This document shows, in pieces, positions 21,001 to 24,000 of a stretch of 64,000 bases of DNA. The position numbers were made by a program. Every line of letters begins with the position of its first letter. Position 1 is the stretch's first letter. Location of the stretch: assembly GCF_030384885.1 (NCBI RefSeq), contig NZ_CP128613.1; one strand, given 5' to 3'. Origin of the DNA: Escherichia coli (GTDB lineage: Bacteria > Pseudomonadota > Gammaproteobacteria > Enterobacterales > Enterobacteriaceae).

Positions 21001-24000
21001 CGATGTAAATTACGCTGGCTTTTGAAGCGTGTAAAAAATTCACAAAGGAGCGAAAGATGAAATTTGACCATCTTGTTGATGTTAGCTTCCACAATTTTGT
21101 CTTTAACGGAAAATTCGATTTTGTCGAACCGGGGCAAACAATGGCATGGCTGGAACAAAACTTTGTTGAGCCGGACTCTAAAAATGATATGGGAAATGGT
21201 TTTTATATCTGGCTATTTGGCAATGTTGAGTTTCATTTCGAAAGCAACAAGCTATATATGATTTGGTGCGATTATTTGAGCCAAATCCATTTGGGCAAAG
21301 CGATCCGATTTGATAAAGGAATATTGAATAACGTCGCTGAGTTGAACGTTACGCGTGTATTTAACATGCTTGTTAACGAAGGCGCTGATCTGCAAATCCG
21401 CCGTCAATCGCTCAGGCGTGACACTTTGGTTTGAAGCAGATGAAGAACAGTCTGGTGAACCGCAGAATTATATGCTGATGGCATTTGGTTTGACACATCG
21501 CGATTACGATGCAAGATTTCAATATTCATAAATGGCGGCGTCATATCATGACGCCGCGACAGGGTTCATTACTGCCAGCTCACCTCACCTTTCGGTTCAT
21601 AGACACTCACATCCAGCGGCGAGTTTTTCTGGATATACGCTTTCAGCACTTCAGCATCAATAAAGCCGGTATTCACATAGCCCGGTTTGTTATCCAGACG
21701 CGGATAGCCATCACCGCCAGTGGCATTGAAGTTTAATGTCGCCATACGGTAAGTTTTCGCCGGATCGACCGGTTCGCCTTTGATTTTCAGGTCGTTCAGT
21801 TTGCCGTCTTTCGCCACAAAGCTAACGTTGGCAAATTGCGGATAGGCACCAGAATCAGGCTTCATTTGTGCGACGGCGGTCAGGTAATCAATCACCTCTT
21901 TACCGGTCATGTCGGCATACACCACCACATTGCCGAATGGCTGCACTTTCAGCACATTTTTATAGCTGATATCACCTGCTTCGATAGAATCACGAATTCC
22001 GCCTCCGCTCATCACCGCAAAGTCGGCACCAGTGCGATCCATTTGTGCTGCCAGAATCAACCGCCCCATATTGGTCTGTACAAAACGCACTTTGCTGCGG
22101 TCGCCTTCCAGACGACCATTGGTTTCGCCTATTTTCACTTCCAGCTGCGCTTTGCCTTTGTTCTGGAACGGTGATAACAGCGAAATCATTTGCTGGTTTT
22201 CGGCGATTTCAGGGGTGTAAAGCACACGCTCGCTTTTCCCGTCTTCCCAGGTCACTTTCTTCTTCAGGTTTACCGGAATCAACTGGTAGTTGACCATTTT
22301 CATTTCGCCGTTGCGAAACTCAAAGTCGGCCCGACCTACGTACTTGCCCCACTCATGCGCCTGTACAATCCAGATGCCATTTTGTTGATCCGGTTTGCAT
22401 GGCGTACCAGGAACGTAATCGACCTGTTTTTTATTTTCTGCCGCCATACAGACTGGATCTTGCGAGTGACCTCCGACGATCATCGCCAGCGATCCGGCAG
22501 GCAGCGCGCGTGCCATTTCCACATCGCCCGCTGCGTTAGAGCCGTGCTCACCATTGTCGTAATGCCCCATATGGGTCGCCGCGATAATAATGTCTGGCTT
22601 TTCTGTCTGTTGCAGCTCCTGAATCACCAGCTTCGCTTCATCGGCGGGTTTACGGAACTCAATATCGGTGAAGTTTTCTGGGTTGCCTAACTTCGCTGTG
22701 TCATCCGTCGTCAGACCAATAACGGCAATTTTCAGATCCTGACGCTTAAACAGCGCCCATGGTTTAAACAGGCGCTCACCAGTGCTTTTTTGGTAGATAT
22801 TGGCGGAAAGCAACGGGAACTTAGCCCACTTTTCCTGCTGGCGTAATACGGTGAGCGGGTTATCAAATTCATGATTACCGATTGCCATCGCATCATAGCC
22901 CACCAGATTCATACCGCGAAAATCAGGTTCGGCATCCTGTAAGTCGGACTCGGGCACGCCAGTATTAATGTCGCCACCGGAAAGTAGCAGCACGCTACCA
23001 CCTTCAGCCGCAACCTCTTTGCGAATACCGTCCACCAGCGTTTTTTGCGCCGCAAGACCATATTCGCCATATTCATTACGCCAGAAATGACCATGATGAT
23101 CATTGGTATGCAGAACTGTAATTTTGTAGGTTTTATCCTGCTCATAAGCCAGAGCAGTTTCACTCGCCAGTGTAAATGTGGTTAACAGTGCTAACGCCAC
23201 GCCCCGCTGCAATAATTTCATACTTCTCTCCCTGATCAGATTTCAACGTGTTGAAAAATAGTATGACGCGACATCATAGACAAGTCTGCGTCCGGTGAAG
23301 ATAAATCTGCATCCAGATTAGAAATTCTGTATTCAGCGTTGAGACTTCCTTCAGGCGGCGCATACAGGTATGTTAGTCGGGTAATAATCACAAATAAGAT
23401 CATTCTTTACATCGCAACCCTGAAAAAGTGACTTTCCTATGGCAATGAGTGAACAAACCCAGCCAGTGGCTGGCGCTGCTGCGTCAACGACTAAGGCCCG
23501 AACATCGTTTGGTATTTTAGGTGCTATCAGCCTCTCACATCTGCTGAACGACATGATCCAATCGCTGATTCTGGCGATTTATCCCCTGCTTCAGTCAGAA
23601 TTTTCTCTGACATTTATGCAAATTGGCATGATAACCCTCACCTTCCAGCTCGCCTCTTCACTATTGCAACCTGTGGTCGGCTACTGGACGGATAAACATC
23701 CGATGCCGTGGTCGTTGCCGATTGGCATGTGCTTTACCTTGAGCGGTCTGGTGCTGCTGGCGCTGGCGGGCAGTTTTGGCGCAGTTCTGCTGGCGGCGGC
23801 GTTGGTCGGCACTGGTTCGTCGGTCTTTCATCCGGAATCCTCACGCGTGGCCCGAATGGCGTCTGGTGGCCGTCATGGCCTGGCGCAATCTATCTTTCAG
23901 GTCGGCGGCAACTTTGGCAGTTCCCTGGGGCCCTTGCTGGCAGCGGTGATTATCGCGCCTTATGGCAAAGGCAACGTGGCGTGGTTTGTACTTGCAGCAC

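Follow-up and report, generated by a model that had tools for sequence, protein, structure and literature searches.

The stretch of DNA analysed here, referred to as the window, comprises 64,000 nucleotides of an Escherichia coli genome (RefSeq assembly GCF_030384885.1, contig NZ_CP128613.1). Between ybaK and ushA it carries two genes, hereafter gene 1 and gene 2, the second of which is present as a truncated allele. The sequence between positions 20100 and 21700 is 100% identical to that of strain 2013C-4282 (NZ_CP027579.1). The features of the locus are as follows.

18759-19553, plus strand: TraB/GumN gene (ybaP or ybaP-like), from the ORF list.
19757..20236, plus strand: ybaK (Cys-tRNA(Pro) deacylase), flanking the insert on the left (159-aa ORF; RefSeq annotation of the identical record).
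20260..21060, plus strand: gene 1 of the insert, encoding a 266-aa DUF6896 protein, intact in the window (ORF list, Pfam match).
21057..21434, plus strand: gene 2, truncated allele of 125 aa with a TGA stop at 21432-21434 (ORF list; alignment to 167-aa alleles).
21402..21411, plus strand: surviving copy of CGTCAATCGC, the junction of the 29-bp deletion (repeat spacing and 29-column gap).
21412..21531, plus strand: out-of-frame remnant of the 3' end of gene 2, the '+1 frame' (its translation is the C-terminus of the 167-aa alleles).
21498..21513, plus strand: patch resembling the 3' end of ybaK (TCGCGATTACGATGCA), inside the coding sequence of gene 2 (alignment statistics, junction comparison).
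21535..21557, no strand assigned: hairpin with a 10-bp stem between gene 2 and ushA (minimum free energy, MFE; comparison with K-12-like genomes).
21569..23221, minus strand: ushA (UDP-sugar hydrolase/5'-nucleotidase), flanking the insert on the right (550-aa ORF; RefSeq annotation).

The two middle genes are an accessory insert, with a presence/absence polymorphism between ybaK and ushA: the pair occurs in 774 of 5426 complete E. coli genomes (14%) and in none of the K-12-like genomes. The phylogroup B2 strains UTI89, 536, ST131 and APEC O18 are among the carriers listed. Measured against empty-site genomes, the insert starts directly after the ybaK stop codon (20237), and its right end lies at about 21566, close to the stop codon of ushA; K-12-like genomes instead contain 36 bp between ybaK and ushA, including a hairpin of unrelated sequence. 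Within the insert, the stop codon of gene 1 overlaps the start codon of gene 2 (ATGA at 21057-21060).

The hairpin between gene 2 and ushA stands where K-12-like genomes have the unrelated GTGCCGGATG..CATCCGGCAC. The 51-nt stretch that includes it (21525-21575) has an MFE of -19.8 kcal/mol on the plus strand and -18.8 kcal/mol on the minus strand (z = -3.6 and -3.7, respectively), and the hairpin is probably a shared terminator. It has no T-run by the criterion of the terminator scan, and the promoter and terminator scan as a whole returned counts close to the shuffle expectation. A search against Rfam gave no match inside the cassette, its sole match being the small RNA sroB, also known as ChiX/MicM, which lies upstream between the ybaP-like gene and ybaK (RF00368, 19552-19635, minus strand, 82.1 bits, E = 8e-12). 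Farther upstream, at 18433-18810, short ORFs with repetitive Arg- and Pro-rich translations overlap densely on both strands; this region, which lies ahead of the ybaP-like gene and overlaps its start, looks like REP/BIME-type palindromic repeats.

The lesion lies in gene 2. In keeping with the original prediction, the 125-aa ORF (21057-21434) stops at 21434, with the TGA at 21432-21434, and another frame, preceded by a TGA (21343-21345), stays open from 21346 until it meets a TAA (21529-21531), reading ...NRSGVTLWFEADEEQSGEPQNYMLMAFGLTHRDYDARFQYS as quoted there. The suggestion that this second frame plausibly continues the gene is borne out, its tail being identical to the C-terminus of a 167-aa protein encoded at the same position in other genomes. 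Intact gene 2, in the other carrier genomes inspected, measures 504 nt and encodes 167 aa (WP_000667000.1, WP_000667003.1, WP_105287995.1). Nucleotide alignment of the alleles reveals a single 29-column gap, confined to the window and 2013C-4282. At this site the intact alleles contain a perfect 10-nt direct repeat, two copies of CGTCAATCGC whose start-to-start spacing of 29 nt equals the size of the gap, in the arrangement ...AAATCCGC-CGTCAATCGC-CCCATACACT(C/A)TTAATCCA-CGTCAATCGC-TCAGG... One copy survives in the window, and the breakpoint is placed no more finely than within this repeat. When the 29 bp were put back in silico, the 167-aa ORF was recovered.

The consequences for the reading frame follow from the position of the repeat. 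CGTCAATCGC starts in phase 0 with codon 116, which keeps the product native through S118 (residues 1-118). A loss of 29 bp, a length not divisible by 3, changes the frame beyond codon 118 and adds the 7 out-of-frame residues LRRDTLV before the TGA is reached. The remnant at 21412..21531 encodes native residues ~129-167, that is, the last 39, together with the native TAA (21529-21531). The last 120 nt of gene 2 are identical (0 differences) to those of N96 and MFDS1022581, which have the nearest intact alleles, and this lack of further decay in an out-of-frame tail argues that the deletion is recent.

The lesion is thus a 29-bp deletion and not a single-base indel, and the repeat geometry points to slippage or microhomology between the direct repeats as its origin. 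One copy of CGTCAATCGC and the intervening bases were lost, likely by replication slippage or another microhomology-mediated deletion; the change of frame after codon 118 brings in the early stop and leaves the true C-terminal 39 codons open but untranslated, and the deletion is recent and has been passed on clonally. A second perfect 10-nt direct repeat of gene 2, TTTGGTTTGA, was seen in the MFDS allele; its copies correspond to window positions 21425-21434 and 21484-21493, 59 nt apart, and the pair is a further potential substrate for out-of-frame slippage deletion.

How much of the protein is damaged can be gauged from its homologues, which, as the original prediction had proposed to check, run past the end of the 125-aa ORF. 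A word-indexed search recovered full-length relatives with 86% (167 aa) and 65% (166 aa) identity, conserved through HVNRSGVTLWFEAD...AF.LTH. An exhaustive phmmer search (E <= 1e-3) returned 175 cluster representatives, most of them ~150-190 aa long, with matches extending from query residue 1 to ~150-165. An alignment of 76 sequences puts F135, which is near-invariant, in the lost part, along with the motifs SGVxLxF and YxLxAFxL. The AlphaFold2 model built from the same alignment (pLDDT 93.8, pTM 0.89) consists of two α/β lobes. According to this model, the truncation removes strands 121-126, 131-136 and 149-156, which are three of the last four β-strands and belong to the second lobe, and keeps the first lobe, with strands 41-71 and helices 11-35. 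Given the strands lost from the predicted structure and the conserved C-terminal positions that are missing, loss of function is likely, and the 125-aa product would most likely be that of a non-functional pseudogene.

Nevertheless, the retained N-terminal lobe (~residues 1-80) could fold by itself, and a functional product may be envisaged in two ways: the 125-aa protein would work with one lobe, or ribosomal frameshifting would recover the full C-terminus. The N-terminal lobe is indeed complete, the allele is common, being found on 254 contigs, and the downstream frame is perfectly open. However, most of the 175 representatives span both lobes, the shorter records possibly being fragments, and the ~10 deleted codons, which form strand 121-126, are beyond rescue by frameshifting. 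The open tail, with its 0 substitutions, is accounted for by the recency of the deletion, and a neutral loss that is inherited clonally is in line with how abundant the allele is. We therefore regard a working product as improbable and retain the non-functional pseudogene as the reading of this allele.

It had further been proposed that 21474-21515 may be a decayed copy of the 3' end of ybaK and that it might be the remnant of a target duplication marking the boundary of the insert. Both sites do have TCGCGATTA followed by GATGCA, and MAFFT aligned the ybaK end of empty-site genomes to the patch. Formal local alignment of the two segments, however, places the similarity at chance level. The best alignment, TCGCGATTA--CGATGCA (20227-20244 against 21498-21513), consists of one 9-mer and one 6-mer, and its score of 20 is attained by 2.1% of shuffled sequences and by 3.7% of real segments drawn at random from the window, so that p is ~0.02-0.04 for a comparison picked post hoc. 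BLASTN assigned it E = 1.2 in a search space of 544 x 301 nt, tied with an unrelated match. Between the two segments, ~0.034 exact 9-mers are expected by chance.

The position of the patch also speaks against a shared origin with ybaK. It lies within the coding sequence of gene 2, and the same position still encodes the C-terminus in the relatives with 86% (THRDYDA) and 65% (THADYET) identity. The 9-mer is in frame at both sites, as CGC-GAT (Arg-Asp), reading T-H-R-D-Y-D-A in gene 2 and R-D-stop in ybaK. In the locus of the 86%-identity relative, where ybaK ends in CGGGATTGA and the gene 2 site reads CGTGATTAC, the shared 9-mer is gone. The patch is situated ~55 bp inside the right boundary of the insert (~21566), not at its end. 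The right-hand TCGCGATTA is followed by CGATGCAAGATT and the ybaK copy in empty-site sequence by AGCATTGTGCC, which do not match, and no flanking duplication is visible at the insert ends in comparison with empty-site genomes. A target-site duplication or insert-boundary repeat was thus rejected, as the copies are not at the insert ends and their similarity is not above chance. The related idea that K-12-like genomes arose by deletion of the cassette between the TCGCGATTA copies through microhomology predicts a junction of TCGCGATTA followed by CGATGCAAGATTTCAATATTCATAAATGGCGG, which is unlike the K-12 intergenic sequence; likewise, the 55 bp after the patch and the hairpin do not resemble the 36-bp K-12 intergenic region. 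A duplicated ybaK end of either kind is very unlikely, and the resemblance is a chance match.

The remaining question was whether the truncation belongs to the genome or to its sequencing, the original prediction having offered a frameshift or a sequencing indel. Concordant assemblies constitute the evidence for the deletion. Among the 774 carriers, the deletion junction matched as a single piece in one, 2013C-4282, and the intact 109-bp junction segment matched in the other 773, with >= 99% identity in 771 cases. The 125-aa sequence occurs in exact form on the 254 contigs mentioned above, which come from NCBI, ENA, JGI and Logan (for example, EGB71124.1 and CAD6085426.1), and is listed in 600 index blocks. 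The identical junction is present in 7 of the 7 assemblies checked (GenBank genome assemblies and an ENA metagenome assembly), with scattered SNPs among them. The recurrence of one junction in seven SNP-differing assemblies and of one product on so many contigs argues for a real, clonally inherited lineage allele. Although the deletion occurs in just one of the complete genomes with the insert, and neighbouring lesions fall in homopolymers, where errors are typical (+1 T in N96; in the MFDS strains, -1 T in a T8 run), read error does not typically produce a clean 29-bp loss with a 10-nt repeat at its edges, and an artefact of one genome with a gene that is really intact is hardly conceivable when the junction is shared by seven other assemblies and the exact product by contigs from several archives. 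Hence, truncation by frameshift stands as proposed, and the sequencing indel gives way to a 29-bp repeat deletion.

The two homopolymer lesions are found in the closest relatives of the window allele. In N96, an additional T in a T run, at about window position 21199, splits gene 2 into 57 and 121 aa, and in MFDS1022581 and MFDS1019527 the loss of one T from a T8 run, at window position 20778, shortens the DUF6896 gene to 163 aa. Relaxed selection in this sub-lineage may account for them, or they may be sequencing errors at homopolymers.

Gene 1 matches the Pfam family DUF6896 (PF21837) with 53.1 bits, against a gathering cut-off of 27; its model has a pLDDT of 88.9 and no informative structural match. 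DUF6896 remains paired with gene 2 in B2 strains of E. coli, in E. whittamii and in divergent metagenomic Escherichia-like contigs, but the two are not obligately linked, as DUF6896 occurs alone in Leminorella and the 65%-identity relative of gene 2 (P0005) has no DUF6896 neighbour. In the Escherichia-like contig with the 86%-identity relative (1447-1469), ~21 nt lie between the DUF6896 gene (257 aa) and gene 2, with no ATGA overlap, and translational coupling of the pair is therefore not conserved. A type II toxin-antitoxin pair, in which the antitoxin should be indispensable beside an intact toxin, was considered and rejected: in the window lineage gene 1 is intact and gene 2 truncated, and in the MFDS strains gene 1 is frameshifted and gene 2 intact. 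Neither PADLOC nor Pfam gave a toxin-antitoxin match for the pair. The two cassette genes appear individually dispensable.

Scans of gene 2 against Pfam, NCBIfam and PADLOC, in both its truncated and restored forms, yielded no match, and 76 family members compared with Pfam gave none either. A profile search of the sequences in the PDB gave noise at best (E ~0.4), and Foldseek against the PDB with the gene 2 model returned nothing significant. Three sequences with ankyrin matches in the representative search (P0020, P0152 and P0154) were discarded, the matches being due to a short LVNEGADL motif. The literature offered nothing useful on DUF6896, DUF4240, a link of the ybaK-ushA site to phylogroup, or YdcD/double-wing. 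[quoted passage not shown] Unlike T6SS immunity proteins, gene 2 has no adjoining toxin or secretion-system gene in Escherichia.

A broader view of the family was obtained from a genome scan for related loci, with 8 closer sequences as the query. The order ybaK-DUF6896-gene 2-ushA was also found in E. whittamii, and more distant relatives of gene 2 in Aquimarina (several per genome), Paenibacillus, Neisseria elongata and metagenome-assembled genomes (MAGs) of Bacteroidota; the 90% cluster of gene 2 also includes proteins of E. fergusonii and E. albertii. The Aquimarina relatives belong to long arrays in which small genes, including those for DUF4303, DUF6304, DUF6678, DUF6210 and LRR proteins, all run in one direction; two of these groups, DUF4303 and LRR, are predicted to be Rhs immunity proteins (bioRxiv 10.64898/2026.07.13.738213). 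A Barstar gene adjoins the relative in one Bacteroidetes MAG, and several distant relatives are solitary among housekeeping genes. In a distant member of 330 aa (P0011), a DUF4240 domain (E = 1.8e-7) is fused to the gene 2 domain (residues 166-327). SUKH proteins are a known immunity superfamily, and beside the 65%-identity relative there is a 65-aa ORF (3488-3685 of its contig, minus strand) with a weak Syd/SUKH-2 match, below threshold at E = 0.031, which is only a hint of a link to immunity. No toxin gene was found beside the cassette in Escherichia.

From the predicted fold and the gene context in other taxa, the intact 167-aa protein is probably a cytoplasmic protein-binding inhibitor or an orphan immunity-type protein. 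The support for the immunity part of this reading is circumstantial and the case for it weak. In its most specific form, gene 2 would represent an uncurated BLIP-like family of two-lobed immunity proteins directed against a secreted toxin, and the cassette an orphan-immunity islet kept in the sampled B2 strains (UTI89, 536, ST131) and in other Escherichia species; we offer this tentatively and consider it rather doubtful. If it were true, inactivation in the window lineage would remove protection against a competitor's effector. A family with a confident predicted fold and no curated model could merit a Pfam entry and a test for immunity or inhibitor activity.

Collectively, these results make it highly probable that the window carries a two-gene insert in which gene 2, normally encoding 167 aa, is a recent, clonal pseudogene produced by a 29-bp repeat deletion and most likely non-functional, with an intact counterpart that is probably a cytoplasmic inhibitor or orphan immunity-type protein. 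Nothing here would surprise a specialist, and the value of the result lies mainly in annotation and in a lineage marker: WP_001353395.1, the 125-aa "hypothetical protein", should be flagged as a frameshifted pseudogene of the 167-aa gene, and the 29-bp deletion can serve as a clean clonal marker of a single E. coli lineage. Set against slipped-strand deletion pseudogenes, the allele has nothing unusual about it; RefSeq labels the product a hypothetical protein and not a pseudogene. It shares with such pseudogenes of bacterial accessory genes the same short direct repeats, the frameshift and premature stop, the undecayed downstream frame and clonal inheritance.
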